Positions 34,058 to 63,311 of a stretch of DNA of 64,000 bases are shown here, in pieces; positions within the stretch are counted from its first letter, which is position 1, and every line of letters begins with the position of its first letter. The notes under the pieces were generated by a model. That model was not told where the DNA came from. It was given only the letters and a program-made list of their open reading frames with translations, and ran no database searches. This stretch comes from Patescibacteria group bacterium. Lineage in GTDB: Bacteria > Patescibacteriota > Microgenomatia > UBA8517. The stretch is from assembly GCA_041742135.1 (NCBI GenBank), contig JBGSJG010000004.1:45975-109974 (forward strand), given 5' to 3'. The position numbers and the translations under genes are program-made.

Positions 34058-34101
34058 TCCTTCGACTGCCTGCCCGCGCAGGCTGGCGCTCAGGATGAAT
34101 C
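34058..34101 (+). repeat. 44-nt GC-rich palindrome-containing repeat, copy A
   Basis: tccttcgactgcctgcccgcgcaggctggcgctcaggatgaatc. 39/44 identical to copy B at 38667. Confidence 0.8.
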
Positions 34102-34151
34102 TGTCAGTTTGCTTTTGAGGTTATAAGCCTAAAAGTATACAATAGTACAGT

Positions 34152-34496
34152 ATGACAATTGCAGAATCCCAGCCTCCCATCGATGCGTCTGTTGTTGAAA
34201 TTCCGGATCAGCCAGAAATTCCATCCAATATTGAAACTGCAACCGGGGTAACGAGCGTTCCCACGACACCTGCTCCAATTCAAGGACCTGCTGACCAGCC
34301 AGTCGTGCAATCAGTGCCCGCCCCCGCACAAAATACGCCACAGGTAAAAATTCCAGCGGTTGATGAGAAACAACTTGAGGAATATTCTCGCGGCAACAAG
34401 ACCGACGCGAAGACTTGGTTTGGAGTTTTTTGGATCCGAAAAATTAAGCAGGCAATAGGTGGCGGGCTTTCAGTAATTTTTGGGAAAACACAATGA
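34152..34496 (+). CDS. proline-rich small protein, translationally coupled to the downstream ATPase
   Basis: P/Q/V-rich. C-terminal amphipathic WFGVFWIRKIKQAIGG. ATGA overlap with the next gene. Confidence 0.4.
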   Translation: MTIAESQPPIDASVVEIPDQPEIPSNIETATGVTSVPTTPAPIQGPADQPVVQSVPAPAQNTPQVKIPAVDEKQLEEYSRGNKTDAKTWFGVFWIRKIKQAIGGGLSVIFGKTQ

Positions 34497-36823
34497 ATGT
34501 GCTTACTAGCTTACTAACAACAATTTTTTTGGGGTTGTTCGCGTTTATGTTCTTTTTTTTGTTTTTTCTGGCAATTCTTTGGTACGTAATCGAGCGTGTG
34601 CGGGCGAATGATCGTGAAGAAAAATCACTAGAATCAATTTTGCTTGAGGTTACGGTTCCTCGGGGGAATGAAATAAAAGTTGACGCTATGGAGCAGCTTA
34701 TTTCTTCGTTTGCTTCGATTAAGAAAAGCGGCTGGAAAATGCGCTTTAAGAGCCAGCCCACAATTTCGTTTGAAATACTTGGCAGAAACGAAGACATCAG
34801 GTTTTTCATCTGGGTACCTAAAGACCTTCGTGATTTTATCGAAAAACAAATTAACGGAGCTTACTCGGATGCTCATGTAATTGAAGTCCCCGAATACGAA
34901 ATTTTTACTGAGGAGGGCAAGGTTGCTTATAAAGCTTTTGAGCTTCGTAAAGAAAATTATTTTCCAATTAAAACATTCAAGGAGTTGCCAACTGATGCTC
35001 TGGCGACAATTACTTCGGCAATAGGGAAGATGAGTAAAGGTGAAGCAGCGGCTGTACAAATTCTTGTGTCTCCTACGCAGTCAGAGTGGCAAAAGGAAGG
35101 CCGAGCTTTTATCTCAAACACTAAAAAGCAGGAGTCAGACCCCACAAAGGCCAAGTTTTCTGTTTCTGCAAAAACTCTGGAAGCTGTAGAAAACAAAGTA
35201 AGTAAACCCGGTTTTGCAGTGGCTATTAGGATTGTAGTGGTATCTGAATCGGAGACGACGGCCAATGTTCATCTAAGTAATATCGCCAGCTCCTTTGCTC
35301 AGTATTCTAGCGATGTAAACAGTTTTACTTCCAAGAAAATCAAAAACAAAGGAGCTTTTGTCGAAAACTTCATTTACCGTTACATGCCTTCTGGCATTTT
35401 TGACAGAAGTGTTTCAATTTTAAATTCTGAAGAAATTGCTACGGTGTTTCATTTTCCAAACAAACTTGTTGCCACTCCGCACATTAAATGGCTCAATGCA
35501 AAAACTGCTCCGGCCCCAGCAGAGATTCCTCAAGAGGGCTTATTTATGGGCTATTCCACATATCGAGGTCTCAAGCGACCGGTTTACATTTCTGAAGTTG
35601 ATCGCCAGAGACACACATACATCATCGGAAAAACCGGTACTGGTAAATCTAAATTTTTGCAAAGCCAGATCTTACAAGACATTGAAGCAGGCCGCGGGCT
35701 TTGCTTTATGGATCCACACGGTGACGCTGTGGAGGAGCTTTTGGGCATGATTCCGCCTGAGCGTGCGGAGGATGTGATTTATTTTAGGCCAAGCGATTCG
35801 CTTCGCCCGATGGGCTTGAATTTACTTGAAGCCAAAACTGAAGATCAAAAGCATTTCGTGGCAACATCGGTTATTAACATGATGTACAAGCTTTTTGATC
35901 CATATAAAACTGGAATTGTGGGGCCGAGATTTGAACATGCTGTGAGAAACGCCATTTTGACTGTCTTGGCGGATGAAGGTGCTACGTTTGTGGAGGTTAT
36001 GCGTGTTTTGACGGATGCTAATTATGTTCGCGAATTACTGCCTAAAGTTGATGACCCGATTGTTCGCAGATACTGGACAGATCAGATTGCCCAAACCTCT
36101 GACTTTCATAAATCCGAAGTTTTGGACTACATAACCTCTAAGTTCGGGCGTTTTGTTACCAATAAAATGATCAGAAACATTATTGGTCAGTCTCAATCAT
36201 CGTTTAACTTTCGCGAGGTGATGGATCAAGGAAAAATTTTGTTTATTAATTTGTCTAAGGGTGAGCTTGGGGAGGAGAACTCTAACTTTTTGGGCTTGGT
36301 CATTGTGCCAAGAATCTTAATGGCTGCCATGAGCCGCTCTGATATTCCTGAAGAACAGCGTCGTGATTTTTATCTTTATGTCGACGAGTTTCAGAATTTT
36401 GCCACGCCAGATTTTGCCCAGATACTTTCAGAAGCCAGAAAATATCACTTAAGTTTGACTGTGGCAAATCAGTTTATTGGCCAAATTGACGATGAGATTA
36501 AAAACGCAATATTTGGTAACGTAGGTACGCTCATCACGTACCGCGTAGGTGTGAGCGATGCGCAATATCTGGCGCACGAATTTACACCGACTTTTGGTGA
36601 GGATGACCTTCTTAATATCGAAAAATACAACGTCTACATGAAGACGATTGTCCAAAATGAGCCAGTTCCGCCATTTTCTATGGCTGTGCCGGGAGACATC
36701 ATGGATAAGCTTAAAAACAGAAATCTCAAGCTTGCCGAGGCCTTAAAGGAAATGAGCCGGCTCAAATTTGGTCGAGACGTACGGCTTGTGGAACAAGAGA
36801 TTACGAGACGTGCCAAGTTGTAA
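34493..36823 (+). CDS. VirD4/TrwB/TraG-like type IV coupling-protein family ATPase
   Basis: Two N-terminal TM helices. Walker A IIGKTGTGKSKF, then CFMDPHGD. C-terminal YVDEFQNF...RKYHLSLTVANQ (TraG-D_C-like). Confidence 0.65.
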   Translation: MNVLTSLLTTIFLGLFAFMFFFLFFLAILWYVIERVRANDREEKSLESILLEVTVPRGNEIKVDAMEQLISSFASIKKSGWKMRFKSQPTISFEILGRNEDIRFFIWVPKDLRDFIEKQINGAYSDAHVIEVPEYEIFTEEGKVAYKAFELRKENYFPIKTFKELPTDALATITSAIGKMSKGEAAAVQILVSPTQSEWQKEGRAFISNTKKQESDPTKAKFSVSAKTLEAVENKVSKPGFAVAIRIVVVSESETTANVHLSNIASSFAQYSSDVNSFTSKKIKNKGAFVENFIYRYMPSGIFDRSVSILNSEEIATVFHFPNKLVATPHIKWLNAKTAPAPAEIPQEGLFMGYSTYRGLKRPVYISEVDRQRHTYIIGKTGTGKSKFLQSQILQDIEAGRGLCFMDPHGDAVEELLGMIPPERAEDVIYFRPSDSLRPMGLNLLEAKTEDQKHFVATSVINMMYKLFDPYKTGIVGPRFEHAVRNAILTVLADEGATFVEVMRVLTDANYVRELLPKVDDPIVRRYWTDQIAQTSDFHKSEVLDYITSKFGRFVTNKMIRNIIGQSQSSFNFREVMDQGKILFINLSKGELGEENSNFLGLVIVPRILMAAMSRSDIPEEQRRDFYLYVDEFQNFATPDFAQILSEARKYHLSLTVANQFIGQIDDEIKNAIFGNVGTLITYRVGVSDAQYLAHEFTPTFGEDDLLNIEKYNVYMKTIVQNEPVPPFSMAVPGDIMDKLKNRNLKLAEALKEMSRLKFGRDVRLVEQEITRRAKL

Positions 36824-36831
36824 GCTTCATT

Positions 36832-36840
36832 TGGTATAAT
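36832..36840 (+). promoter_or_regulatory. extended -10 TGgTATAAT upstream of the tRNA cluster
   Basis: Perfect TATAAT with TG at -14/-15, about 10 nt before the first tRNA-like sequence. Confidence 0.45.
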
Positions 36841-36850
36841 ATCCTCACTT

Positions 36851-36887
36851 GGGCCATTCGTTCATCGGCTAGGACGGGATTCTTATA
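36851..36887 (+). pseudogene. 5' half of a split tRNA gene (tRNA#2), ending in anticodon loop CTTATA
   Basis: GGGCCAT acceptor strand and D-arm. Pairs with the 3' half at 36994-37033. Confidence 0.6.
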
Positions 36888-36998
36888 GCGCAAAAATGGG
36901 CCTGTCGTTCAATGGTAGGACACCATTCTTATAAAGTGGACACGAAGGTTCGATTCCTTCCAGGCCCACATTTTTGCGATATATCGTGATGCGTTATA
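36883..36998 (+). mobile_element. 106-nt insertion in the anticodon loop of tRNA#2, carrying an intact tRNA gene
   Basis: Flanked by 10-nt inverted repeats CGCAAAAATG (36889-36898) and CATTTTTGCG (36969-36978), and by a duplicated TTATA (36883-87 and 36994-98). Confidence 0.4.
36898..36968 (+). tRNA. tRNA, anticodon UAU (Ile-type, AUA-reading) by manual cloverleaf; no encoded CCA
   Basis: Acceptor GGGCCTG/CAGGCCC. D-stem GTTC/GGAC. Anticodon stem CCATT/AGTGG, loop CTTATAA. T-arm GAAGG-TTCGATT-CCTTC. 71 nt. Confidence 0.6.
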
Positions 36999-37033
36999 AA
37001 GTCCAAAGGATGGTTCGACTCCATCATGGCCCA
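36994..37033 (+). pseudogene. 3' half of split tRNA#2
   Basis: TTATAA-AGTCC...GATGG-TTCGACT-CCATC-ATGGCCC-A. Anticodon stem and acceptor are perfectly complementary to the 5' half at 36851-36887. Confidence 0.6.
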
Positions 37034-37103
37034 CAAGTAGGACGGATTTTTGTGACAACGAAGATTCGAAAATTTTGCGAAGCAAAAGAGTCAAGCTTTG
37101 CTT

Positions 37104-37121
37104 ATTCCTTCCAGGCCCACA
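37104..37121 (+). repeat. 18-nt direct repeat identical to the 3' end of the tRNA (ATTCCTTCCAGGCCCACA)
   Basis: Exact match to 36953-36970. Att-core-like, about 210 nt from the end of the integrase gene. Confidence 0.6.
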
Positions 37122-37124
37122 CTA

Positions 37125-37340
37125 ATGACAAAAGACGAAAAGAAAAAATACGACACTCTGGTAGAGGAACACAAGAAAGTTGCCGAGAAGTTAGAGTTTC
37201 TTCACAGAGGATTTCGGGGAGTGAGCCACGAAAATTCTGCTGCTGAGATGCGCTACACTACAATTCAGGTGTACGAAGCCCATCTTAAAAGTATCGAGGA
37301 AGCCATGAAACTACTGATTGCTGATGAGAAAAGCTTATAA
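37125..37340 (+). CDS. small charged hypothetical protein
   Basis: 71-aa ORF (MTKDEKKKYD...) between the tRNA-end repeat and the integrase. Confidence 0.3.
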   Translation: MTKDEKKKYDTLVEEHKKVAEKLEFLHRGFRGVSHENSAAEMRYTTIQVYEAHLKSIEEAMKLLIADEKSL

Positions 37341-38204
37341 CTCTTCTAGCCTTGGCGAGTGGCCACTTTCTTTTACGTTGGCAATTTGAAGATAGCGCTC
37401 TGTGGTTGATAGTCTTCTATGTCCTGCCGCTTGAGAAATAGTTACAAGGTCAACACCTCTTTTAATGTTTTCAATCAAAAAAGTGTTGCGAAGGTCGTTG
37501 ACCGAAAACTCAGAAAGCTCTGCTCTTTGAAGATATCTGTCAATTAAGGCTCGAATATTTCTTATTGCTAGTGGGTTGCCCGTTTTACTGACGAATAAAT
37601 AAGGAGAAGTAGCATCGCTTCGCTCGCGAAGATAATCCTCAATTGCGGCTCTGGCGGTTTTATTTAGAGGAATTCTGCGCTCTGGTTGAGTAGCATATGC
37701 GTCGATAACCACTTCATCCCTTTTAACATCAGACACTTTTAAGTTTGCAACTTCCGATATTCGCATGCCAGTCTGAAGAATTAGTTCAATCATTGCAGCG
37801 ACTTTACGGTCATATTTTGCTGTATCACGAAGCGATCGGTACTCAATGGGGGACAAATATCCGGGCTCTGGGGCGTTAATTTCTGGGTGGCTTACTTCGC
37901 GCGACGGATCTTCCTCGATGTAGCCTTCATCTTTTACCCAACGGAAAAAAGTTTTCACCGCGTTAAGTTTTCGCGATGTCGATTTTGGGGTATATTTATG
38001 AGACAAAAGATGATCACGAAAACCCTCCAAGTCTCGCAAGGTTATGTTTCTCGGGTCGACAACGCTCTTGTGGCTCAAGTATTCAGTTAGCTGTTCCAAA
38101 TCGGAGCCATAAGCTAGAATGGTGGAAGGGGAGCGCTTTTTGTCTGTAAGTTCTTGAATAAATCTTGGCACAAGGTCGCCTAAAGTGACGCTAAATTGGT
38201 TCAT
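37335..38204 (-). CDS. tyrosine site-specific recombinase (phage-integrase/XerCD family)
   Basis: N-terminal SAM-like core-binding domain (TILAYGSDLEQLTEYL). C-terminal R...HRRLSTTERYLQ catalytic signature. Confidence 0.8.
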   Translation of the reverse strand: MNQFSVTLGDLVPRFIQELTDKKRSPSTILAYGSDLEQLTEYLSHKSVVDPRNITLRDLEGFRDHLLSHKYTPKSTSRKLNAVKTFFRWVKDEGYIEEDPSREVSHPEINAPEPGYLSPIEYRSLRDTAKYDRKVAAMIELILQTGMRISEVANLKVSDVKRDEVVIDAYATQPERRIPLNKTARAAIEDYLRERSDATSPYLFVSKTGNPLAIRNIRALIDRYLQRAELSEFSVNDLRNTFLIENIKRGVDLVTISQAAGHRRLSTTERYLQIANVKESGHSPRLEEL

Positions 38205-38306
38205 TTTAAATTACTATATACATTTGATGATACCATATTACTATTCGCAGTCAACATTATGGGACAGAAATATTCTTGTAGTAAATTACTATAAACAATA
38301 AATACC

Positions 38307-38666
38307 ATGAAAAAATTTTCATCGGCGGTACTGATTTTTGTATCATTTTTATTGATATTGTCCTTCGCCAGAGGTGTTTTTAGGCTTATCTCATCAAGAG
38401 ATAAAATTGACAAAGCACGGGAGCGACTTTCACAACTACAGGTAGAAAAAGAACAGCTGACTACCAAGCTCAAAGAAATAAACTCGGATACTTTTAAAGA
38501 GGTTCAGTTGAGGGACAATCTTGGCTTGGCAAGGGAAGAGGAGACTGTGGTGGTCCTTCCGAGCGAAGATGTTCTTCGCAAGCTTTCACCCAGAATTCAA
38601 AAGGAACAACTACAAAAAGAAGATAAGCCCATTTGGCAAAAATGGGTTGATTTATTTACTGAATAG
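38307..38666 (+). CDS. septum formation initiator family protein (FtsB/DivIC-like)
   Basis: TM plus coiled coil plus LRDNLGLAREEETVVVLPSE, similar to the FtsB C-terminal motif. Confidence 0.55.
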   Translation: MKKFSSAVLIFVSFLLILSFARGVFRLISSRDKIDKARERLSQLQVEKEQLTTKLKEINSDTFKEVQLRDNLGLAREEETVVVLPSEDVLRKLSPRIQKEQLQKEDKPIWQKWVDLFTE

Positions 38667-38710
38667 TCCTTCGACTGCCTGCCTGTGCAGGCGGGCGCTC
38701 AGGACGACTC
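38667..38710 (+). repeat. 44-nt GC-rich palindrome-containing repeat, copy B, followed by further GC-rich hairpins to about 38750
   Basis: Starts 1 nt after the FtsB-like stop. GGCCGGG-AGTCGCG-CCCGGCC hairpin downstream. Confidence 0.8.
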
Positions 38711-38844
38711 CGTCGTCGGTTGCGGGGCCGGGAGTCGCGCCCGGCCTAGGAGATTATGAGCCTCCTGTGCAACTCTACACTACCCCGCATATCACCCTCA
38801 ATTGTTTTCAAGGGTGTCCTATTATACCTCGAAGTGTAAAGATG

Positions 38845-38904
38845 GCAAAACAAGTTTGAGTTTGGAAGCTCAAAAAGGTAAAATTGACTCACGTCAGGGT
38901 AGCT
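38845..38904 (+). repeat. 60-nt perfect direct repeat, copy A (tRNA-Met promoter plus first 12 nt of the tRNA)
   Basis: Identical to 40574-40633. Followed here by a non-foldable tRNA-like tail, not a tRNA. Confidence 0.9.
38879..38884 (+). promoter_or_regulatory. -10 box TAAAAT inside repeat copy A (duplicated tRNA promoter now facing the lipoprotein gene)
   Basis: Same element at 40608-40613 sits about 9 nt upstream of the tRNA-Met 5' end. Confidence 0.35.
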
Positions 38905-38970
38905 AACTCCGAAGAGATAGGGGCTCATAATCACTAGGTTGGAGTTCGATCCTTTCCCTTGATACAAAAC

Positions 38971-40464
38971 ATGACCGACACCGAAGAGCCAACAGTAGCT
39001 AATAACACGATAAGTAGGCGAACTTTTCTTAAAATGGCGGTTGCTACTGGCGCAGGATTGTTGGCTTCTTGTGTTCCAGGTTCCACTGAACCCAGCACTT
39101 CAACTCCGACTCCAGAACCTTCTCGGACACCAACTATTGCACCTCCAACTCACGAGCCGACGCCAACAGAAACTCCTGACCCGATTGAGCGTTATAACGA
39201 GTTAAAAGAAATGGACGTCACTGAATTGGATTTGGACGAAGCTCTGAATATCGTAAATGAATCGTATAGAGCAATTACGGCCAGAGATAGAACGCAGATT
39301 GCGTTTGACGAGGACTCTTTTGCTTTTGACAGAAGTGTGCCGGCAATAGACGAGAGAAGAAGAGAACGAGTTCGTGGCCAAAAGCAGACTTTGCAGTATC
39401 TTAAAAATGCAATGTTTGCTTTGGATGAAATTAGAAAAGAGGCCGATGCTGAGCAATATATTTATTCCACGCGCCATCAGAGAATCGTACTGGTGAATGA
39501 TCAAGGAATGGAAACCGGTGCAGGGAGGACATCTTTCAGCGTTAATCAGCCATACGAAGACGTTCAGATTCGTTTTAACGAGAGAATGGATCAAGAGGTT
39601 GCGGCAAACGAGCTGGTTCCGGCCATGCTTTGGCCAGGGCAGATTCCTCAGGGGGAGCCACCCTCTTATAATGCTGATGAATGGGACCTGTTATCCAGTT
39701 TTCTTCATGTCGCGATTGCGGAGAAACTGGGTATTGATAACCAGTTTGAAAGAGTTGCTCAAAATCAGTTCGGAGTTGTTTTTCCAGAAGGACAAGATTT
39801 AAGAAGCACTGGTGAATTTTACGGCTTGCAAACGGTTGGACTCTCGCAAGAAAACAGAAACGCCCTGTCCTATTTTAACGAAGCGTACCATTTAGTTATA
39901 TTTAATCGGATGCGGGCAGCGGGAATTGAAGCCACAGATATATTAAAAGCACTCGATGAAATTTGGATGGCCGATCGGAGCTATTGGATAGATAGTGGGC
40001 AATTTGAGCAAACAAGACAAGACCTTTCGCAAGCGAGTATTTATGAAAGAGATTTTGAAGGAAGTAGTGATAAGCCGTTCTCAACTGTATTCGCGATCCA
40101 AGTTTGGGGGGAAAATGGTATTCGACTCATATCGACTCGGCGCAATAACGTTGAAGTTACTTTAGGTGTTGATCCGAGTAACCCTCGTGAAGCTGGGCTT
40201 TATTGGCCTCAAAACGACTATTTTAGAGTTGAGAGGGGAGATGGTGAAATTCTTTATGAGGGTGGTGGCTATCAAGAATTGCCTCAAAGTACAGATAATG
40301 AGTTGAACTTTGTTCGACTACAAGAAATACCTAACGTGTCTCCGGGAGAAAAATTGAAAATCATTCATCGAGAGGCACGATTCAATCCAGAAAATGGTGC
40401 TTTTGAGGATGTTTCTGAGGGAGACAAAGAGTATGAAGTATTGGCACCTCGGTGGATTAATTAA
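38971..40464 (+). CDS. Tat-signal lipoprotein, hypothetical
   Basis: SRRTFLKMAVATGAGLLASC (twin-arginine plus lipobox). T/P-rich linker. ATG at 38971 preferred over the TTG at 38959. Confidence 0.5.
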   Translation: MTDTEEPTVANNTISRRTFLKMAVATGAGLLASCVPGSTEPSTSTPTPEPSRTPTIAPPTHEPTPTETPDPIERYNELKEMDVTELDLDEALNIVNESYRAITARDRTQIAFDEDSFAFDRSVPAIDERRRERVRGQKQTLQYLKNAMFALDEIRKEADAEQYIYSTRHQRIVLVNDQGMETGAGRTSFSVNQPYEDVQIRFNERMDQEVAANELVPAMLWPGQIPQGEPPSYNADEWDLLSSFLHVAIAEKLGIDNQFERVAQNQFGVVFPEGQDLRSTGEFYGLQTVGLSQENRNALSYFNEAYHLVIFNRMRAAGIEATDILKALDEIWMADRSYWIDSGQFEQTRQDLSQASIYERDFEGSSDKPFSTVFAIQVWGENGIRLISTRRNNVEVTLGVDPSNPREAGLYWPQNDYFRVERGDGEILYEGGGYQELPQSTDNELNFVRLQEIPNVSPGEKLKIIHREARFNPENGAFEDVSEGDKEYEVLAPRWIN

Positions 40465-40573
40465 TTTCACGAACTGAAAGGGTCGCAAAATTATTTTTGT
40501 CCTATCGAGAAGAGTTTGTTTCGGAGTATGGAATGCTTGTCGAATGCGCCATACGCCTCTTAGTTCAAATTAC

Positions 40574-40633
40574 GCAAAACAAGTTTGAGTTTGGAAGCTC
40601 AAAAAGGTAAAATTGACTCACGTCAGGGTAGCT
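40574..40633 (+). repeat. 60-nt perfect direct repeat, copy B (native promoter and 5' end of tRNA-Met)
   Basis: See copy A. Confidence 0.9.
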
Positions 40634-40695
40634 CAGCTGGTTAGAGCACAGCATTCATAACGCTGCGGTCGTGGGTTCGAATCCCACCCCTGACA
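40623..40695 (+). tRNA. tRNA-Met (anticodon CAU; could alternatively be a lysidine-type Ile2)
   Basis: GTCAGGG/CCCTGAC acceptor. GCTC-AGCTGGTTA-GAGC D-arm. Loop TTCATAA. GTGGG-TTCGAAT-CCCAC T-arm. Confidence 0.8.
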
Positions 40696-40723
40696 CTTTA
40701 TTTTTTCCGTTTACGGTATAAAA

Positions 40724-41014
40724 TTGCTTATGTCTTCCTTTGATAATTTTAAACACGACGAACATCCACGCATGGGTGACACCCTGACTCTAAACACCAA
40801 CGGCATTGATTTCGTTAATGTGATTCTTGAACCAGCAGGAGACACTGTAACCAGCCCATACAAGGTAACTCATGGAGGAGAATTGCCTGATGGTTCAGTT
40901 TGGATGAACTTTGGAGATTGTTGTGGCTGGACAAAACCGGGCTTTGAATTAAAAGAATTTAGCAGAGACTTGTTTGTTTGCATGTCAGTACCGGCAGGAA
41001 CAGAAAGAAGATGA
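40724..41014 (+). CDS. hypothetical protein
   Basis: 96-aa ORF. No motif recognised. Confidence 0.3.
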   Translation: MLMSSFDNFKHDEHPRMGDTLTLNTNGIDFVNVILEPAGDTVTSPYKVTHGGELPDGSVWMNFGDCCGWTKPGFELKEFSRDLFVCMSVPAGTERR

Positions 41015-41061
41015 ATTGGCTCACTCTTTAAATAACTTCTAATCTAAGCTACTATTGACCC

Positions 41062-42042: not shown

Positions 42043-42404
42043 TGGACGAAATTACATTTGATCAATTTCAGGCGATTGATATCCGAATTGGAACAGTTAC
42101 CGAAGCCTCAGTTCCCGAGTGGAGCCATTGGGTGATGAAGTTGACGGTAGATTTGGGTGAAGAAATCGGGACAAGAATCATTTTTTCGGGAATCATGAAT
42201 TTTTATAAACCGGAAGAATTGGTGGGCAGACAGTTTCCCTTCGTTGTTAATTTGAAACCCAAAAAGATAGGTCCAGCAGGGGATTTCTCCCAAGGCATGA
42301 TGCTTATGGCCGTTGTTCCGGATGAATCCGGAGAACCGGAAAAAGAATTACCGGTGTTACTGGGTATTGAAAAGAAGGTTCCAGACGGTTCAAAAGTGAG
42401 GTAA
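42042..42404 (+). CDS. tRNA-binding domain protein (Trbp111/CsaA/EMAP-like OB fold)
   Basis: IDIRIGTV...VVNLKPKKI...GMMLM pattern of pfam01588-type domains. ATG overlaps the trpS stop. Confidence 0.65.
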   Translation: MDEITFDQFQAIDIRIGTVTEASVPEWSHWVMKLTVDLGEEIGTRIIFSGIMNFYKPEELVGRQFPFVVNLKPKKIGPAGDFSQGMMLMAVVPDESGEPEKELPVLLGIEKKVPDGSKVR

Positions 42405-42446
42405 GTTGCGCTCGCAATAGTGAACTTCGAATGATATAATCCCACT

Positions 42447-49034: not shown

Positions 49035-49592
49035 TCAGGGTTTTGTCCAAAAAATGTTCGAACTTCGTCCAAAAAACACTCTGTCGTATTGGGTATGGAG
49101 AAAAGCGTGATAACCATTTAGGTGTTTTCCAGTGGCAATTGTTTGTAAGGCTATGGCCTTTACATGTTCAAGAGTTTGTAGCCTTTGAGTCTCACCGCCA
49201 TATATAAAAGCATGTTCTGGGTGAGAGGGGTCAAATGAATGGGCAACTTCGTGGTCAGAAGCACTATCAATTGCCTGTGCAGGTAAAGCAACGAGCCGAC
49301 TATAAAATGTTAACTTTCCTTTATCTGGGCCGCTTGGTGTGTGAGTTCCCAACAAATCAGGATGGTCGGCTGAGTTTTCGGCCTCCTCAAGAGCGGGAAT
49401 CATATCTACAGGCAGTCCTCTCCTTGCGATTCTTTGGCGGACATCAGCCATATCAAAAATGTAATACTCGTCGTCTGGTCGTGAAATTGATTCCAAGTGG
49501 CGCAGCCTGGCTTCGTATCCTTCAATTCTTGTTCTTTCAGGTTCTATGTAATCTCGGCGTGGGTCAAAACTAACTCTTCTTTTCTCTGCCAT
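49035..49592 (-). CDS. YgjP/DUF45-like metal-dependent hydrolase (HExxH)
   Basis: HEVAHSFDPSHPEHAF resembles the YgjP HELAHLxHxNHSxxFW signature. Confidence 0.5.
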   Translation of the reverse strand: MAEKRRVSFDPRRDYIEPERTRIEGYEARLRHLESISRPDDEYYIFDMADVRQRIARRGLPVDMIPALEEAENSADHPDLLGTHTPSGPDKGKLTFYSRLVALPAQAIDSASDHEVAHSFDPSHPEHAFIYGGETQRLQTLEHVKAIALQTIATGKHLNGYHAFLHTQYDRVFFGRSSNIFWTKP

Positions 49593-49672: not shown

Positions 49673-50521
49673 ATGCCAGAGCTTCCAGAGGTCCAATCAA
49701 TCAGAAACCAGCTTGAGAAATATGTCACAGGGCATAAGCTCGAGAGCGTAGAAGTTATAAATAAAAAAATTGCTCCTGACGATTTTACTCCTATTGTTGG
49801 GTCAAAATTTAAAGGTTTCCGGCGTTTTGGAAAGGTGCTTGTTTTTGATTTTGATAATGGTTACTCTACAGTTTCTCATATTAAACTGACCGGACAGTTT
49901 GTTTATCGTGGGCCAAATCTCAAAAACCCACCCACATTATCAAAAAAAATCAACGATGGCTTGGGAGGGCGCCACACGCATGTGGTATTTCATTTAGACC
50001 GCAAAGGACTTTTGTATTACAATGATTTTCGCCGATTTGGATGGATAAAGCTTACTAAAACCAAAGACGTTCCCGAATTTGATTTTATTAAAAAGCTCGG
50101 GCCCGAGCCCTTGGACGAGCTCACTTTTGAGAAATTTAGCGCTTTACTTGGCAAAACTCGCCGTGCTGTAAAAGTGGTGATTATGGATCAGTCCAAAATG
50201 GGTGGAGTTGGCAATATCTATGCAAACGATGCCTTGTGGGATAGCCAAATTTTGCCGAGCCGTCCGGCAAATAGCCTTAGTCAAAACGAAGCAAAAGCAT
50301 TGTTTAATTCGATTGAAAAAGTGTTAAAAAAAGGAATCGCGACTGGGGGCGCAAGCGAGCTTTCTTTTGTGACTCCAGACGGAGGTGAAGGGGATTACCA
50401 AAATCACTTTCTGGCATATGGAAAACAGGGAACTCTCTGCCCAAGATGCAAAAAAGAAAAGTTCAAAAAGGTAGCCTTGGGTGGCCGGGGAACTTACTTC
50501 TGTCCGAGGTGTCAAAAATAA
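49673..50521 (+). CDS. mutM: formamidopyrimidine-DNA glycosylase (Fpg/Nei family)
   Basis: MPELPEVQ N-terminus (catalytic Pro2/Glu3). H2TH. C-terminal CPRC...CPRC zinc finger. Confidence 0.8.
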   Translation: MPELPEVQSIRNQLEKYVTGHKLESVEVINKKIAPDDFTPIVGSKFKGFRRFGKVLVFDFDNGYSTVSHIKLTGQFVYRGPNLKNPPTLSKKINDGLGGRHTHVVFHLDRKGLLYYNDFRRFGWIKLTKTKDVPEFDFIKKLGPEPLDELTFEKFSALLGKTRRAVKVVIMDQSKMGGVGNIYANDALWDSQILPSRPANSLSQNEAKALFNSIEKVLKKGIATGGASELSFVTPDGGEGDYQNHFLAYGKQGTLCPRCKKEKFKKVALGGRGTYFCPRCQK

Positions 50522-51580
50522 ATGCTTCAAAAACTAGAACTTAAAAACTTCAGAAACTTTGCCAAAAAGTCACTTGATTTTACAGGTGGAATCACTGTTG
50601 TAGTTGGGGAAAACGCATCGGGCAAAACAAATATATTGGAGGCAGTCGCGCTTTTGTCCACCGCAAAAAGTTTTCGGGCTGGGGTCGAGGAGGAAATGGT
50701 CAATTATGATGAGGAAGTGGGAAGAGTCTCGGGTAAAATATCAGACGAAACTAGCCTAGAAGTAGTGCTTACAAGAGGAGTAATCACTCGAGGCGAGATT
50801 ACCGAGCGCGTGGCACGCAAGAAGCTACTGGTAAATGGGGTTAGTAAGCGCATGGTCGATTTTGCTGGAATTTTTAAGACCGTGTTATTTAGACCTCAGG
50901 ATATGGATTTGGTAAGCCAATCGCCGTCCCTTCGAAGAAAGTTTTTAGACTCAGTGCTTTCTCAAGTCGACCGTGAATATCATCGAGCAATTCTGTCTTA
51001 CGAAAAAGGACTACGCCGCCGCAATAAACTTTTGTATCGCATACGCGAAGAAGGCATATCGCGATCGCATTTGTACTTTTGGGACAAGCTTCTTATTAAA
51101 AATGGCGACTACATTAGCGCAAAGCGTGAAGAGCTGATCGACTATATTAATGAAACCCAAAAACTTGGGGATAATAATTTTAGCCTTACTTACGACAAAA
51201 GCGTAATTTCGGAAAGTAGACTTTTGCAGTATAAACTTGAAGAAGTCGCATCAGCCACGACTTTGGTCGGCCCTCATCGCGATGATTTGATTTTTTTGGA
51301 AGGCAAACGCGATTTGGCCAAATACGGCTCGCGAGGAGAGCAGAGGATGAGCGTTTTATGGCTTAAAATAGGCGAATTAGATTACATCACGAAATCAAGT
51401 GGTGACCTGCCTGCGCAGGCAGGAAAACCAACCCTTCTTTTGGACGATATTTTCTCAGAGCTTGATCACGAGCACAGAAGGCTGGTGGGGGAGATCGCAG
51501 GGCGGCAACAAACCATAATCTCAACAGCAGATCCGCATTATCTTGAGTTTGAAGATGGGTTTGACAAGATTGAACTATAA
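50522..51580 (+). CDS. recF: DNA replication and repair protein RecF
   Basis: Walker A GENASGKTN. C-terminal LLLDDIFSELD Walker B/D-loop. Confidence 0.8.
   Translation: MLQKLELKNFRNFAKKSLDFTGGITVVVGENASGKTNILEAVALLSTAKSFRAGVEEEMVNYDEEVGRVSGKISDETSLEVVLTRGVITRGEITERVARKKLLVNGVSKRMVDFAGIFKTVLFRPQDMDLVSQSPSLRRKFLDSVLSQVDREYHRAILSYEKGLRRRNKLLYRIREEGISRSHLYFWDKLLIKNGDYISAKREELIDYINETQKLGDNNFSLTYDKSVISESRLLQYKLEEVASATTLVGPHRDDLIFLEGKRDLAKYGSRGEQRMSVLWLKIGELDYITKSSGDLPAQAGKPTLLLDDIFSELDHEHRRLVGEIAGRQQTIISTADPHYLEFEDGFDKIEL
51406..51423. repeat. perfect 18-nt palindrome CCTGCCTGCGCAGGCAGG inside recF, encoding LPAQAG
   Basis: Self-complementary. Identical to the copy in the GH57 gene. Related to the core of the 44-nt intergenic repeats. 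Confidence 0.85.
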
Positions 51581-55714: not shown

Positions 55715-55725
55715 AAAAACTAACT

Positions 55726-58191: not shown

Positions 58192-59177
58192 TAGTTGTTT
58201 ATCTTGTTTTGATTGCTATTTGTTCTTTAATCCTTATTAAGGCTGCCGATTTGACAGTAAGTGCAATTTCGCGCTTAAGCGAGGTGACGCGCGCCGGGTC
58301 CTTTTTCATTTCAGCGATTGTAATAGCAATTGGTACATCTTTCCCTGAATTGTTTGTTGGTCTAACTTCAGCAATCAACGGTTCTCCTAATTTGAGTTTT
58401 GGAAATGTACTTGGCGCAAATATCGCCAACATTGCTCTGATTGCCGGAATTGGAGCCGTCGTTTTTAATCGCGTCCAAGTGCAAGGAGAAATTGTCAGGC
58501 GGGACTTGGCGATTGCTCTAATTGCAGGCCTTACTCCTTTTATTCTTGTTTTCGATCTAGAGCTTGGTCGCGTAGACGGTTTGGTTCTGCTGTCAATTTA
58601 TGGTGTGTATGTTTCAAGCTTGTTCCGCGAGCGATATATGCAAATTGCCAAGACTCGAAGCGAGTCGGGCAGTCAAAATTTAGATAAGATTTTTCGGCAA
58701 ATATCTACGGTTGGTAAAAATCACTTTCAGGACTTTGGAAGAATGTTTTTAGGTGTTGCCTTACTCTTAGCTTCAGCAGAGGGGATAGTTCGAATTGCAA
58801 AACAGATATCGTTAATGCTATCTATTCCTGTTTTTATCGTAGGTTTGATCATTGTTTCTCTTGGCACAACTTTGCCCGAGTTGGCTTTTTCGATACGGTC
58901 TTTAAGAGACCGGCATCCAACAATGTTTTTTGGCAACTTGCTGGGTTCAATTATCGCTAACTCAACGCTAGTTATTGGACTGACTTCTGTAATTTCGCCG
59001 CTTCAAATAGAGGCGATTAACGAATATGCGGTGGCTCTTGCGACTTTTGTTTTGGTGTTTTTATTGTTCTCTCTTTTTGTACGCACCAAAGCTGCTCTTG
59101 TTAGGTGGGAAGCGGTGATTTTACTACTTTGTTATATTGTATTTGTGATAGTAGAATTCTTTGGAGTAGGGAGGTGA
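58188..59177 (+). CDS. Ca2+/cation antiporter (CaCA family, YrbG-like)
   Basis: Two alpha-repeats GTSFPELFVGL and GTTLPELAFSI. ATGA overlap with the ATPase gene. Confidence 0.75.
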   Translation: MIVVYLVLIAICSLILIKAADLTVSAISRLSEVTRAGSFFISAIVIAIGTSFPELFVGLTSAINGSPNLSFGNVLGANIANIALIAGIGAVVFNRVQVQGEIVRRDLAIALIAGLTPFILVFDLELGRVDGLVLLSIYGVYVSSLFRERYMQIAKTRSESGSQNLDKIFRQISTVGKNHFQDFGRMFLGVALLLASAEGIVRIAKQISLMLSIPVFIVGLIIVSLGTTLPELAFSIRSLRDRHPTMFFGNLLGSIIANSTLVIGLTSVISPLQIEAINEYAVALATFVLVFLLFSLFVRTKAALVRWEAVILLLCYIVFVIVEFFGVGR

Positions 59178-59181
59178 TTTT

Positions 59182-59499
59182 GTGAGCGAAACATCAACAG
59201 GGCTTAAAAAAGAAACGGCAGCAGCATTGTCCTATCTTTTAGGTCCAATTACTGGCGTTATTGTTTTGGTTTTGGAAAAAGACGAGTACATACGTTTCCA
59301 AGCGATGCAATCAATTGTCGTATTTATAAGCTTGTTTGTTCTGCACTGGGTGCTCGGAATTACCGTAATATTGGCATTTTTGTTACCCTTGGTATCATTA
59401 GTCTCTTTTGTTCTTTGGCTGGTTTTAATCTATAAAGCGCTACAGGGAGAAAAATTTCAAGTTCCCTTTTTGGGCAAGTACGTAACGAAATTGTTATAA
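59182..59499 (+). CDS. DUF4870-like small membrane protein
   Basis: YLLGPITGVIVLVLEKDEYIRFQAMQS pattern. Confidence 0.45.
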   Translation: MSETSTGLKKETAAALSYLLGPITGVIVLVLEKDEYIRFQAMQSIVVFISLFVLHWVLGITVILAFLLPLVSLVSFVLWLVLIYKALQGEKFQVPFLGKYVTKLL

Positions 59500-59503
59500 A
59501 AAA

Positions 59504-59989
59504 ATGAAGCTTATAGTAGGCTTGGGAAATGTTGGAGCAAAGTATGAAAATACTAGGCATAATGCTGGGTTTAAGTTTGTTGATGAGTTTGACAAATTTA
59601 AACCCAAAGGCGCGGCTCTTCATAAGCCAGACACCATGATGAATAATTCTGGTGCTTTTGTCGCGAAATTAATAAATAAAAACAACTTGGACATTAGCAA
59701 TCTTTACATTGTGCATGATGATTTGGATTTGCCTCTAGGGGGTTTTAAGATTCAATTTGGCAAAGGCCCTAAGGTTCACAATGGTATTAACTCTATTGAA
59801 GAGCACCTTGGATCAGGCGATTTCTGGCGTGTACGCATTGGGGTAGACAACCGCGACACAGATAACCGCACTCCTGGAGATAAATATGTGCTCGAGGAAT
59901 TTACGCCAGAGGAGCGGGAAAAGCTATTTCAAGTAATGAAAAATGCGACTACAGAATTAGTTTTGCACTTACAAAATGTCGACCGATAA
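59504..59989 (+). CDS. pth: peptidyl-tRNA hydrolase
   Basis: MKLIVGLGNVGAKYENTRHNAGF N-terminus. Confidence 0.85.
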   Translation: MKLIVGLGNVGAKYENTRHNAGFKFVDEFDKFKPKGAALHKPDTMMNNSGAFVAKLINKNNLDISNLYIVHDDLDLPLGGFKIQFGKGPKVHNGINSIEEHLGSGDFWRVRIGVDNRDTDNRTPGDKYVLEEFTPEEREKLFQVMKNATTELVLHLQNVDR

Positions 59990-60281
59990 AAAAGCTGGCT
60001 TTACAAGTATTGGAAAAGTACTTGGAGGAATTGAACGCACGAAAGATAAATACATTTCTCGAGAGTTTCAAAAATACGGCTACGATTTGGCAGTCGAGTT
60101 GGGAGACGAAAAGCACAAGGCACTTTACATCAAGCTGGCCAAGCAGCACTCCAGAGGTCATCTGGAGGCTGCGCGCAACTTCGTCAAAGACGCTTATCAG
60201 GTTAAATCTAAAGGCAGGCTCTTTATGTGGAAATTAAAAGAGCTGGCTCGCGCCCGTGAGAATAAAGACGGTGGCAAATAG
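59976..60281 (+). CDS. basic hypothetical protein
   Basis: 101-aa ORF overlapping the pth stop by 14 nt. Confidence 0.3.
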   Translation: MSTDKKAGFTSIGKVLGGIERTKDKYISREFQKYGYDLAVELGDEKHKALYIKLAKQHSRGHLEAARNFVKDAYQVKSKGRLFMWKLKELARARENKDGGK

Positions 60282-60328
60282 ATTTTGCATGCGCTAATAT
60301 GAGTTAGTATGCGAGTGTTTCTAGTGGT

Positions 60329-60862
60329 ATGAAAAAACAACTGGTAATTTATTATGCTTTATTTATTCTTTTATTTTTACTAATTTCACTGGCACGCGGA
60401 TGGCTCGCGGCACCATATATCGCTTTGTGGATCGGAGGCGCGATTGGCGCAATCTTGCCCGATGTGGACCACCTTATTTATATTTACTTACTAAAACCTC
60501 ACGAGCTTACAAGCCAGAGGGCGAGCAGGATGATTTCGCGCCGGGAAGTTTGGTCGGCTTTAAATTTACTTGCAACTACGCGATCTGAGAGGACAAACTT
60601 AATATTTCACACGGCGGTGTTTCAATTAGTTTTTGCTGCATTTACCTTTTTTGTTATCACTTCCTCATCCAATCTCTTTGGCAGGGGGATTGTTTTGGCT
60701 TTTTATTTGCATCTTTTGATAGATCAATACCTTGATTTTACTCAGCTTGGAAATATATCCCATTGGACAAAAGGCCTAAATATCAACTTGGATCGCGACA
60801 AGACTGTTTTTTACTGGGCAGCGATGGGGCTGTTGCTGGTTTTGTTTAGTTTTATTTTTTAG
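60329..60862 (+). CDS. membrane protein, possibly metal-dependent hydrolase (YdjM/DUF457-like)
   Basis: Four to five TM helices. LPDVDH and conserved His residues. Confidence 0.3.
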   Translation: MKKQLVIYYALFILLFLLISLARGWLAAPYIALWIGGAIGAILPDVDHLIYIYLLKPHELTSQRASRMISRREVWSALNLLATTRSERTNLIFHTAVFQLVFAAFTFFVITSSSNLFGRGIVLAFYLHLLIDQYLDFTQLGNISHWTKGLNINLDRDKTVFYWAAMGLLLVLFSFIF

Positions 60863-60879
60863 TCCATTGGTTATACAAC

Positions 60880-62079
60880 ATGAAAGTATTAATGTTCGGT
60901 TGGGAATTTCCGCCGTTTAATAGCGGCGGCTTAGGCGTGGCCTGCCAAGGGCTTGCGCATGCGTTGTGCTCACAAGGAGTTGATCTTACTTTCGTGCTTC
61001 CCAGAAGACTCGGAGTTTCTTCCAACCGTTTCCGTTTTCGCTTTGCAGATGGCAATGGTTTTGAGGAGCTTGAGGTTGATTCGCTTTTAGTGCCCTACGT
61101 GACTTCAAAAAAATACGGCAACCTACTTCGTGATGCACCTGTCGGGATGTACGGCTCAAACTTGTTTGCTGAAGTAAAAAGATACGCAGCTGCGGCTAAA
61201 CAAATTGCTCGAAGTGAGTCTTTTGATGTTATTCATGCACACGATTGGCTAAGTTTTGGTGCAGGAATTGCCGCAAAAGAAGTTAGTGGTAAGCCTTTGG
61301 TAACCCATGTTCATGCTACCGAAGTGGATCGCACGGCTGGGCATGTTAATGATTATATTTTTAACGAAGAAAAAAGAGGAATTACCGCTTCGGACAGAGT
61401 GATCACAGTAAGCGATTTTACTAAACGTGTACTCATTGATAAGTATGGGGTTGATGGCGGCAAAATTAGTGTGGTTCATAACGGCGTAGATCCTGGGAAC
61501 TTTACCACTAAAGCATCAGTTTCAAAGATTACCAAGCTTAAGTCGAAGGGTTACAAAATTGTTTTGTTTGTTGGCAGAATTACGATCATGAAAGGCGTGG
61601 ATTATTTTATTTCTGCGGCGCGCAAAGTACTTGTCTATGACCCGAAGGTGATGTTTTTGATTGTTGGTGCGGGGGACATGGAAGGCCAAGTGATGCAGCA
61701 AGCGGCTTCCTTGGGAATCTCGAATAAGGTTCTTTTCCCAGGTTTTTTGCGTGGAGAAGAGTTGTCGGAGGCTTACCGCTCTGCTGACTTGTTTGTTATG
61801 CCCTCGGTTGCTGAGCCTTTCGGCCTGACTTCGCTTGAGTCTCTCTTGCACGGAACACCGGTCCTTATTTCTAAGCAATCAGGGGCTTCGGAGGTTTTAA
61901 GAAATGCCCTAAAGACAGATTTTTGGGATGTGGATGACATGGCGGACAAAATTCTCTCAGCGGTTAATTACAAAAGTCTTCATGACGAATTGGCTATTAA
62001 TGGAAGAAGAGATGTTGAGGCTTGTAATTGGCCCAAGGCAGCCAACGAATGCATTCAAATTTATCAAAGCCTATTATGA
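60880..62079 (+). CDS. glycogen/starch-synthase-like glycosyltransferase (GT-B; GT4/GT5)
   Basis: FPPFNSGGLGV resembles the GlgA K-x-GGL region. C-terminal E..G.T..E GT-B motif. Confidence 0.6.
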   Translation: MKVLMFGWEFPPFNSGGLGVACQGLAHALCSQGVDLTFVLPRRLGVSSNRFRFRFADGNGFEELEVDSLLVPYVTSKKYGNLLRDAPVGMYGSNLFAEVKRYAAAAKQIARSESFDVIHAHDWLSFGAGIAAKEVSGKPLVTHVHATEVDRTAGHVNDYIFNEEKRGITASDRVITVSDFTKRVLIDKYGVDGGKISVVHNGVDPGNFTTKASVSKITKLKSKGYKIVLFVGRITIMKGVDYFISAARKVLVYDPKVMFLIVGAGDMEGQVMQQAASLGISNKVLFPGFLRGEELSEAYRSADLFVMPSVAEPFGLTSLESLLHGTPVLISKQSGASEVLRNALKTDFWDVDDMADKILSAVNYKSLHDELAINGRRDVEACNWPKAANECIQIYQSLL

Positions 62080-63311
62080 CAAGTATTTGCTTCTATTTTC
62101 AGGTTCATCAGCCAAGGCGAATTAAAAAATATCGTTATTTTGACATTGGCAATAACTCCTCATATTTCGACGACTCAAGTGAATCAAATTTAAACAATAA
62201 AAAAATTCTCCAAAAAGTTGCAGCTAAAAGCTACATTCCTACCAATCGTGTTCTTTTGGAACTTCTTCGCGCACATCCCGAATTTAAGGTGTCTTTTTCT
62301 CTTTCAGGCCTTGCAATTGAGCAGTTTGAAGAATTTTCCCCTGAAACTTTAGAGTCATTCCATGACCTTTTTTCCACAGGCCAGGTGGAGGTTTTAAGTG
62401 AAACTTATTATCATTCTTTGTCCTTTTTGTATTCAGGAGCAGAATTTAAAAGCCAAGTTGATCTTCACGCAAAAAAACTTAAAAAGGTGTTTGGCTTGTC
62501 CAAGCCTAAGGTTTTTAGAAATACAGAGTTAATTTACAACAACGATCTTGCTCGTGAAGTTGAAAAAATGGGTTATGTTGGAATCTTGGCCGAAGGGGCG
62601 GACCATGTGATGGGTTGGCGTAGCCCGAATTTTGTATACCTGCCTGCGCAGGCAGGTCGGCCAATTGAAAGAAAACAGATTAAGTTATTACTTAAAAACT
62701 ACAAACTGTCTGACGATATTGCTTTTCGATTTTCTGAAAAATCTTGGAAAGAGTATCCCCTGACCGCCGAGAAGTTCGCAAATTGGGTGAATGCCATAAA
62801 TGGAAATGGCCAGGTTGTTAATTTGTTTATGGATTATGAGACATTCGGGGAGCACCAGTGGGAAGACACTGGGATTTTTGATTTTTTGCGAGCTTTGCCC
62901 GGAGAACTCCTTAAACACCCAGACAATGATTTTGTGACTCCATCTGAAGCGGTTAAGCGTTACGCGCCGGTCGGTGAAATTGATATGCCAAATTTTGTTT
63001 CTTGGGCGGATGTTGAGCGAGATTTGTCTGCTTGGCTTTCTAATTCCATGCAATCAGACGCGATAGTGAAATTGTATGCCATGAAAGACAAAGTGTTGGC
63101 CACTAAAAACAAGAAACTTGCCGAGGATTGGAGGAGGCTGACTACTTCGGATCATTTTTATTACATGTGTGTTAAATGGTTCGCTGACGGCGATGTTCAT
63201 GCTTACTTCAACCCTTACGAGTCGCCTTACGATGCGTTTCGTTATTACATGAATGTATTGACAGATCTGCAAACGCGCATAAAACCCGCAAAAAAAGTGA
63301 GATCGCTATGA
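62076..63311 (+). CDS. glycoside hydrolase family 57
   Basis: CFYFQVHQP N-terminus (GH57 HQP motif). ATGA overlap with the upstream GT. Confidence 0.6.
   Translation: MTSICFYFQVHQPRRIKKYRYFDIGNNSSYFDDSSESNLNNKKILQKVAAKSYIPTNRVLLELLRAHPEFKVSFSLSGLAIEQFEEFSPETLESFHDLFSTGQVEVLSETYYHSLSFLYSGAEFKSQVDLHAKKLKKVFGLSKPKVFRNTELIYNNDLAREVEKMGYVGILAEGADHVMGWRSPNFVYLPAQAGRPIERKQIKLLLKNYKLSDDIAFRFSEKSWKEYPLTAEKFANWVNAINGNGQVVNLFMDYETFGEHQWEDTGIFDFLRALPGELLKHPDNDFVTPSEAVKRYAPVGEIDMPNFVSWADVERDLSAWLSNSMQSDAIVKLYAMKDKVLATKNKKLAEDWRRLTTSDHFYYMCVKWFADGDVHAYFNPYESPYDAFRYYMNVLTDLQTRIKPAKKVRSL
62638..62657. repeat. perfect 20-nt palindrome ACCTGCCTGCGCAGGCAGGT inside the GH57 gene, encoding (Y)LPAQAG(R)
   Basis: Self-complementary. 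The core 18 nt are identical to the recF copy. Confidence 0.85.

Follow-up and report, generated by a model that had tools for sequence, protein, structure and literature searches.

Repetitive extragenic palindromes (REPs) are, by definition, located outside genes and are imperfect palindromes of 20-40 nt that carry a 5′ GTAG-type tetranucleotide and are specific to particular lineages. The mobile GC clusters of yeast mitochondria are short, GC-rich palindromic sequences of 30-50 nt, belonging to several families, which are scattered in AT-rich compact genomes, occasionally within coding or rRNA genes, and are polymorphic between strains; the related "byp" elements are bypassed by the ribosome and are not translated. 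HIP1 and the uptake sequences are motifs of 8-12 nt that accumulate by substitution, to about one per kb. The Rickettsia palindromic elements (RPEs), of ~100-150 bp, reside in-frame in housekeeping genes, and MITEs (miniature transposable elements with inverted repeats), such as Correia, ERIC, Nezha and others, are non-autonomous repeats able to create in-frame fusions (PMC10969869). Here, we describe PAL, an 18-nt perfect GC-rich palindrome (CCTGCCTGCGCAGGCAGG) detected in a 64-kb stretch of the genome of a Patescibacteria group bacterium (contig JBGSJG010000004.1, positions 45,975 to 109,974; hereafter, the window). PAL lacks defining features of each of the RPE, REP, MITE, HIP1 and uptake-sequence families. 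We propose that PAL is, probably, a miniature, non-autonomous, REP-like GC-rich hairpin insertion element, with a fast turnover, which is translated where tolerated.

Two exact copies of PAL are present in the window, to neither of which a strand is assigned. The first (51406-51423) lies within recF (50522-51580, plus strand), an open reading frame (ORF) of 352 aa that matches the SMC_N and AAA families of Pfam, and the second (62639-62656) lies within an ORF for a family 57 glycoside hydrolase (GH57; 62028-63311, plus strand; Pfam Glyco_hydro_57, E=7e-75), where a flanking A and T lengthen the palindrome to 20 nt (62638-62657). Both are translated in the same frame, as GAC CTG CCT GCG CAG GCA GGA in recF and as TAC CTG CCT GCG CAG GCA GGT in the GH57 gene, yielding the peptide L-P-A-Q-A-G in each case. 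The positions and sequences reported for the two palindromes in the initial annotation hold, and the codons of the ORFs confirm the shared peptide. PAL is built of short repeats, (CCTG)2-CG-(CAGG)2, and, folded as DNA, forms a hairpin with a perfect stem of 7-8 bp (-8 kcal/mol). Given the base composition of the window (GC content 0.39-0.45), the expectation for 64 kb is 1.9e-7 exact copies, in line with the original view that a chance origin is very unlikely. Altogether, the window contains 4 distinct copies (5 matches at ≤3 mismatches, with 0.15 expected from dinucleotide shuffles). Palindromes in general are not over-represented in the window (18 of ≥12 nt observed vs ~16 in shuffles), and the longest ones are the two PAL copies. 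The RecF protein of the window is represented by an identical copy in the NCBI and Logan assemblies and groups with homologues from Microgenomates/Woesebacteria-like Patescibacteria, members of the candidate phyla radiation (CPR).

Alignment with orthologues reveals LPAQAG as an insertion in both proteins. The six residues are absent in 116 of the 120 RecF homologues, such that the usual G-E-K-P-T-L-L-L-D-D becomes G-D-LPAQAG-K-P-T-L-L-L-D-D in the window protein, with the insert placed three residues before the Walker B motif LLLDD. Likewise, these residues are absent in 118 of the 120 GH57 homologues, where Y-R-P corresponds to Y-LPAQAG-R-P. At the DNA level, the window recF reads GGT GA[C CTG CCT GCG CAG GCA GG]A AAA, whereas the site is empty in L123 (GGC GAA AAG), the closest syntenic relative, with a RecF 81% identical to that of the window, and in L191 (GGC GAG AAA); L-numbers denote loci fetched for comparison, among which L123 and L121 are syntenic with the window. 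The GH57 gene reads TA[PAL]T CGG CCA vs TAC CGT CCT at the empty site of L150. Both genic copies are exact 18-nt blocks between codon positions 2 and 3, with neither duplication nor loss of the target. A PAL-bearing UvrD-like protein similarly shows a clean 6-residue gap relative to its PDB homologue; for the cysteinyl-tRNA synthetase and DNA polymerase I that bear PAL, the alignments with PDB homologues are ambiguous, the PAL regions being variable. PAL enters spacers and ORFs as a clean 18-nt block. The empty sites of orthologues, in the syntenic relatives in particular, support the earlier suggestion of a small, RPE-like palindromic element inserting in frame, and the polymorphism of the insertion between relatives suggests that the element is mobile.

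PAL is widely dispersed. A scan for the exact 18-mer in one genome from each of 185,579 species yielded at least 120 loci, which represent a sample and not a census. Among these at least 120 listed loci, 71 are labelled Patescibacteria and come from many CPR classes, including WWE3, Microgenomates, Paceibacteria, Saccharibacteria, Dojkabacteria, Kaiserbacteria and others; 15 belong to Bacteroidota, 7 of these to a single metagenome-assembled genome (MAG) of Sphingobacteriales; and ~10 are in bins that carry the unverified label "uncultured Gammaproteobacteria/Pseudomonadales". A few high-GC genomes are also found among the listed loci, and there a chance occurrence is plausible. Most of the listed matches originate from MAGs, with Litoribacter ruber KCTC 22899 and Rosettibacter primus being the isolate genomes among them. 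The flanks of the listed copies are mutually unrelated and mostly AT-rich, and the presence of PAL varies between close relatives. The enrichment proposed as a test in the initial annotation is apparent both in the window, where the motif is far above chance, and in its recurrence with unrelated flanks in many genomes. In the Sphingobacteriales MAG (L033:3463, 5735; L083:7179), intergenic PAL has another conserved module attached at one of its sides (GCGTTAACGACGGTAGCGG-PAL), and the same intergenic joint is found in a bin labelled Gammaproteobacteria (L040:5733), so that PAL pairs with different partner modules in different phyla. A viral vector was considered and rejected: only 25 viral contigs contain PAL, and in the one locus inspected (L135, GC-rich) both copies are in spacers between ORFs.

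PAL-like sequences also form the cores of two composite intergenic repeats of the window. The first (34058-34105, plus strand) consists of TCCTTCGACTG, a core at 34069-34086 (CCTGCCCGCGCAGGCTGG, 2 mismatches to PAL) and CGCTCAGGATGA; the second (38667-38718, plus strand) consists of TCCTTCGACTG, a core at 38678-38695 (CCTGCCTGTGCAGGCGGG, 2 mismatches) and CGCTCAGGA, followed by a second small hairpin, GACGAC-TCC-GTCGTC (38703-38717). These repeats were originally described as 44-nt copies identical at 39 positions (34058-34101 and 38667-38710), which is correct, the similarity reaching 48 nt at 88% (34058-34105 and 38667-38714). The cores are flanked by TCCTTCGACTG and CGCTCAGGAYGA and, in an ungapped alignment with the 18-mer, read LPAQAG and LPVQAG; the arms of the composite hairpins are CCTGCC/GGCAGG, and the PAL-type centre in this genome is TGCGCA. 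The first composite is placed directly 5′ of a minus-strand cobalamin-riboswitch-like RNA and lies upstream of the plus-strand ORF 34152. The second one is located between the stop codon of DivIC and the 3′ end of a minus-strand tRNA-Met(CAT), a spacer that consists of TTAT (4 nt) in L123 vs ~52 nt in the window; this composite is, accordingly, an insertion as well, and its DNA fold has an energy of -15.9 kcal/mol (z=-3.3).

A metagenome scan for the left flank followed by the hairpin retrieved 37 loci, all GC-rich (GC 0.54-0.78), of which 35 have the form CTTCGAC-TGCCTGCC(A/G)G(G/A)GCAGGC-GCTCAGG, often followed by CTTCGACAAGCTCAGGGCGAACGG, and in the remaining 2 (L155, L173) the GCTCAGG arm is missing. 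GC-rich soil and water contigs (L151-L187) contain a REP-like module, CCCTTCGAC-TGCCTGCCAGGGCAGGC-GCTCAGGAC-AGG-CTTCGACAAGCTCAGGGCGAACGG, and the same module is found in sphingomonad plasmids (L189:3000-3075; L188:3001-3053). Because their flanks match this module, the 44-mers of the window can be regarded as the CPR versions of a cross-phylum REP-like module, and PAL as the hairpin core of the repeat CTTCGAC-hairpin-GCTCAGGA. No Rfam family covers PAL or the 44-mers at E≤1, the only Rfam matches nearby being tRNAs and the cobalamin-riboswitch-like one, and neither an Rfam family nor a paper was found for the REP-like module.

Within genes, PAL shows a strong preference for a single reading frame. 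Among 68 copies within long ORFs, 52 are in the LPAQAG frame, compared with 10 in the PACAGR frame and 6 in the CLRRQ frame (p=4e-13). PAL contains no stop codon in any frame and its length is a multiple of three, which suggests that it is translated through, and the frame bias argues that the insert is indeed translated and that the resulting peptide is filtered by selection. In loci with less than 50% GC, 54 copies are inside ORFs of at least 100 aa vs ~40 outside. The intergenic copies are found between tandem (13), convergent (6) and divergent (2) gene pairs. Longer hairpins carry some of the intergenic copies at their apex (L065, L069, L077), and in L070 (7385-7423) the arms of PAL have 21 nt of a further GC-rich hairpin (CCTGCCTGC-CGCGCCGCTTCACTTTGCGGC-GCAGGCAGG) between them, suggesting that hairpin modules are nested in one another.

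Direct repeats at the junctions do not exceed chance, and target-site duplication is absent. A purine occupies position -1 in 82% of the coding and 75% of the non-coding copies and, by symmetry, a pyrimidine occupies position +1; since this bias is seen in both categories, it belongs to the element or to its insertion rather than to selection on the protein. A search for a target motif using expectation-maximization over orientations recovered only this purine (0.48 bit), along with weak purines at -2 and -3. Exact 9-mer half-sites occur only within PAL, and the number of half-sites with one mismatch outside the known copies (9) is close to that expected (~10); in 0.79 Mb of PAL-bearing loci, only 17 isolated half-sites were detected, several of them within mutated PALs. 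The footprint of a larger transposon ending in PAL halves was sought as well and is rejected, no such pairs being found save the small nested hairpins in L070. In ~1 Mb of fetched DNA, a sample ascertained on exact copies, 128 copies are exact, 6 have one mismatch, 2 have two, these being the composite repeats of the window, and none has three. Even given this ascertainment, there is almost no tail of decayed copies.

The recF site is occupied more than once. PAL is found at the identical recF codon in four lineages, namely, the window, L121 (P0003), where it is exact, L122 (P0018), with one mismatch (LPAQVG), and L190 (P0077), also with one mismatch (LSAQAG). Each of these lineages has sisters without PAL: L123 is the sister of the window and L191 that of L121, both are syntenic, and in both the recF site is empty. 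Mapped onto a neighbour-joining tree with 118 RecF sequences, this distribution translates into either 4 gains or 1 gain followed by 18 exact losses. The codons for conserved residues elsewhere in recF are identical in 43% of the cases between the window and L121 and in 40% between the window and L122, whereas inside LPAQAG the identity is 6/6 and 4/5, respectively; conservation of synonymous sites elsewhere amounts to only ~42%. Thus, PAL is conserved as DNA, not as protein. The codons that flank PAL differ among the PAL-bearing recF alleles, indicating that these alleles have not been exchanged as blocks, and allele transfer or homing via homologous recombination is ruled out on the same grounds. 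The GH57 gene provides a second case, with L149 (68% identical) carrying, at the same codon as the window, a decayed copy, TCTGCCTGCGCAGACTGG (LPAQTG, 3 mismatches). Furthermore, in five CPR genomes, PAL occupies one position of a tRNA-Gln-like 5′ fragment (TTGCCGGATCG^TCTAATGGTAGGA; L027:1735, L037:3540, L042:372, L038:6792, L110:728), with an intact tRNA-Gln nearby; in L038, the interrupted tRNA-Gln-like copy, a tandem duplicate, has an acceptor stem that is degenerate. The simplest account of the recurrence is a combination of few permissive sites and high turnover, which would explain the return of PAL to the same site in part.

How does PAL compare with the described systems? In behaviour, its closest analogue is the Rickettsia palindromic element, and in form, the REPs, including their paired arrangements (REPINs), together with the GC clusters of yeast mitochondria. 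Both PAL and the RPEs are palindromic repeats of small, reduced genomes that lie in-frame in unrelated housekeeping genes, to which they add a conserved peptide; both also occupy non-coding sequence, and no transposase is known for either. RPEs, however, form about ten families confined to Rickettsia, whereas PAL is a perfect palindrome of only 18 nt that adds 6 residues and is present, with an identical sequence, in many CPR classes and in other phyla. With the REPs and REPINs mobilized by REP-associated tyrosine transposases (RAYTs), PAL shares the character of a short, multicopy, GC-rich hairpin that is sometimes nested or mosaic, the location of intergenic copies mostly between convergent or tandem genes, and the lack of target duplication, besides being embedded in a REP-like composite module. 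Unlike REPs, PAL copies from low-GC genomes lie inside ORFs in about half of the cases, as do both exact copies of the window; PAL has no GTAG/GTGG foot or conserved flanking tetranucleotide and is common to several phyla; and no RAYT gene was seen in the 64 kb of the source genome or between the paired copies of L033, L094 and L135. The yeast GC clusters are mitochondrial and byp is untranslated, in contrast to the translation indicated by the frame bias of PAL. Like MITEs, PAL is non-autonomous and inserts in-frame, but MITEs span ~50-500 bp and possess terminal inverted repeats and target-site duplications, whereas PAL has neither a duplication nor an internal sequence, and no larger element using PAL halves as its ends was found. 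HIP1 and the uptake sequences resemble PAL in being short and over-represented and in showing a frame bias where they fall in coding DNA. Nevertheless, the HIP1 analogy drawn in the initial annotation does not hold, HIP1 being an 8-mer produced by substitution, whereas PAL is an 18-nt insertion that changes the length of orthologues by 6 codons, is far less dense, with 4 copies in the 64 kb of the window, and has half-sites that are not enriched. PAL can be regarded as selfish palindromic DNA inside protein genes, a phenomenon known from the Rickettsia RPEs; the recurrent insertion at the same site and the identity across phyla could point to something more novel. Searches of full-text literature returned no match for LPAQAG, the 18-mer, the module sequences, or palindromic in-frame insertions in CPR.

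The REP-like insertion element proposed here builds on direct observations, namely, clean insertion, dispersal with unrelated flanks, differences in presence between relatives, filtering of frames and near-identity of the copies. We envisage that PAL, usually flanked by a purine and a pyrimidine, would enter spacers and ORFs as a hairpin unit, after which selection would retain mostly the bland LPAQAG frame in surface loops, such as the RecF loop just before Walker B. The copies would turn over rapidly, via seamless loss and re-insertion, which would explain why nearly all of them are exact or 1-2 mutations off and why a permissive codon is shared by scattered lineages. A putative seamless cut-or-copy-and-paste enzyme, supplied in trans, might act on single-stranded hairpin DNA to catalyse the movement. 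By analogy, such an enzyme could be of the HUH/Y1 type (RAYT or IS200/IS605-like), and its gene could lie elsewhere in the genome or be carried by a mobile vector. The HUH/Y1 enzymes of the RAYT and IS200/IS605 types are the best precedent for seamless movement without target duplication.

Several observations weigh against this proposal. No transposase or candidate enzyme is encoded beside any copy, a genome-wide search not being possible; paired copies in L033, L094 and L135 enclose ordinary genes only, and the only recombinase in the window is a syntenic Xer-like gene. We know of no precedent for an 18-nt autonomous transposition unit. The target preference is weak, with information at -1 only, so that targeting poorly explains four hits on one recF codon; moreover, in three pairs of distant homologues in which both members have PAL, it is found at different positions. 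An identical 18-mer in several phyla calls for either horizontal spread or a sequence constraint, and the copy number is given for the 64-kb window of the source genome. A bolder possibility, which we put forward tentatively and consider less likely than not, is an undescribed mechanism that writes and removes one fixed 18-nt hairpin seamlessly at recurrent sites (the recF codon in four lineages, the GH57 codon in two, and the tRNA-Gln-like position in five genomes) across Patescibacteria and other phyla. If so, PAL would be the smallest known prokaryotic mobile unit, with a dedicated, possibly guided or structure-directed, enzyme.

Alternatively, PAL could spread without any enzyme of its own, being copied from an existing PAL copy into new sites through template switching during replication or through microhomology-mediated repair at hairpin-prone DNA. 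The failure to find an associated enzyme gene and the absence of target duplication fit this scenario, as do the build of PAL from short repeats, which favours slippage and snap-back, and the purine-pyrimidine flank, which often lengthens the palindrome (positions +/-1 are complementary in 39% of the copies vs 25% expected). Templated insertion is nonetheless unlikely, given that the junctions are nucleotide-exact in every case, with no variable microhomology and no partial copies, that the mismatch spectrum includes point changes only, and that isolated half-sites are rare; furthermore, this process alone would hardly yield one and the same 18-mer in distant phyla.

Somewhat harder to defend is the possibility that PAL is an ancient functional site, for instance, a protein binding site, a recombination site, or a signal for RNA stability or pausing, which entered recF, GH57 and other locations once, was maintained through selection on its DNA or RNA hairpin, and was lost precisely in most lineages. 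Such a history would account for conservation above the synonymous expectation (6/6 codons vs a 43% background), for the occupation of the same codon in four RecF and two GH57 lineages, and for the distribution of intergenic copies, 19 of which are between convergent or tandem genes vs 2 between divergent ones. It would, however, require 18 independent exact deletions of 18 nt in one gene tree despite the supposed strong constraint. Decayed copies do exist (3 mismatches in L149 and 2 in the 44-mers of the window), the host genes are unrelated, the same 18-mer is found with unrelated flanks in many phyla, and the frame bias shows that, within genes, selection sees the protein product. We therefore regard an ancient functional site as quite unlikely.

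Uptake sequences of Neisseria and Haemophilus show a frame bias where they occur in genes, are over-represented in genes for DNA repair and form inverted pairs, and CPR bacteria are thought to take up DNA. In another possible view, PAL would consist of two 9-mer uptake signals in inverted orientation, disseminated via biased DNA uptake and recombination in naturally competent CPR bacteria, and the repair function of recF would be suggestive. The computational tests mostly refute this: the half-site is not enriched outside PAL, PAL arose via insertion and not by substitution, the flanks of PAL-bearing alleles are not co-transferred, and a single identical sequence is shared by CPR classes and Bacteroidota, unlike the lineage-specific dialects of uptake sequences, which makes this explanation very improbable. 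Even less credible is the interpretation of the two 44-nt direct repeats as attL and attR, the attachment sites of an integrated element, which is how we read the recombination sites suggested at the outset. The repeats are 4.6 kb apart and enclose genes for a TrwB/TraG-like ATPase (34493-36823) and a phage-integrase-family, Xer-like tyrosine recombinase (37335-38204), along with DivIC, but all three genes are syntenic in L121 and L123, which argues against att sites of an island; L123 retains the genes yet has no repeat in the DivIC/tRNA-Met spacer, and the repeat is part of a widely dispersed module. Finally, although the majority of the matches are in MAGs, the chance that PAL is an artefact of sequencing or assembly, for example, an adaptor or a chimera of palindromic form, is negligible because the same codon is occupied, with point-mutated versions, in independent samples and assemblers (ENA, JGI, Logan), the frame bias has p=4e-13, PAL is present in the isolate genomes of L. 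ruber KCTC 22899 and R. primus, and identical proteins are found in the NCBI and Logan assemblies.

CPR/Patescibacteria account for a large share of bacterial diversity, have ~1-Mb genomes and are known mostly from metagenomes. In these bacteria, PAL is a new source of protein indels and calls for caution in alignments, phylogenies and structure models. PAL can also serve as a sharp presence/absence marker of recent genome dynamics and, possibly, of DNA exchange among community members. Its behaviour suggests an activity that inserts and excises hairpins seamlessly, and the enzyme, if found, would be of mechanistic and, possibly, biotechnological interest. More generally, PAL widens the phenomenon of selfish DNA in protein genes, as represented by RPEs, to a much smaller unit with a much broader host range, and ties it to REP-like modules, CTTCGAC-hairpin-GCTCAGGA, which form a family spanning several phyla and for which we found no description.

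Two sequences flagged in the initial annotation as weak relatives of these repeats can be set aside. The supposed degenerate copy at 33901 shares an 8-mer with the 44-nt repeat, and this 8-mer lies in a stem of the cobalamin-riboswitch-like RNA, which is full-length (33871-34053, minus strand; 29.1 bits vs a gathering score of 31.5, E ~1e-5 to 2e-4) and is located upstream of a minus-strand ORF (32999-33844; 281 aa, no Pfam match). The variant at 49274 differs from the 18-mer at 6 positions, a level of similarity that ~5 sites of the window should reach by chance alone; the proteins around it are not alignable with relatives. Another perfect GC-rich palindrome, of 14 nt (GCTCGGGCCCGAGC; 50095-50108), lies within an fpg-like ORF (49673-50521) and is probably not an insertion because the fpg-like protein, of 282 aa, is of equal length in L121 and L123.

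A 78-nt direct repeat (38827-38904 and 40556-40633, 90%) encloses an ORF (38959-40464) for a 501-aa protein with a weak match to a twin-arginine (TAT) signal, within a segment of ~1.7 kb that appears to be inserted at the 5′ end of a tRNA-Met(CAT) (40622-40696). The insertion duplicates the upstream region and the first 12 nt of the tRNA, and a degenerate tRNA-like remnant is detected at 38893-38964 (22.9 bits); in L123, there is a single copy of the 78-nt repeat region, with the tRNA directly after it. In L121, the orthologue of the minus-strand tRNA-Met(CAT) of the window (1066-1340, minus strand) is interrupted by ~200 nt that match the group I intron model (47.1 bits vs a gathering score of 50, E=5e-11). 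The window also encodes a tRNA-Ile with the anticodon TAT (36898-36969, plus strand), identified by ARAGORN and by the Rfam tRNA model (65 bits); this anticodon is uncommon in bacteria, where AUA is usually decoded by a lysidine-modified CAU tRNA.

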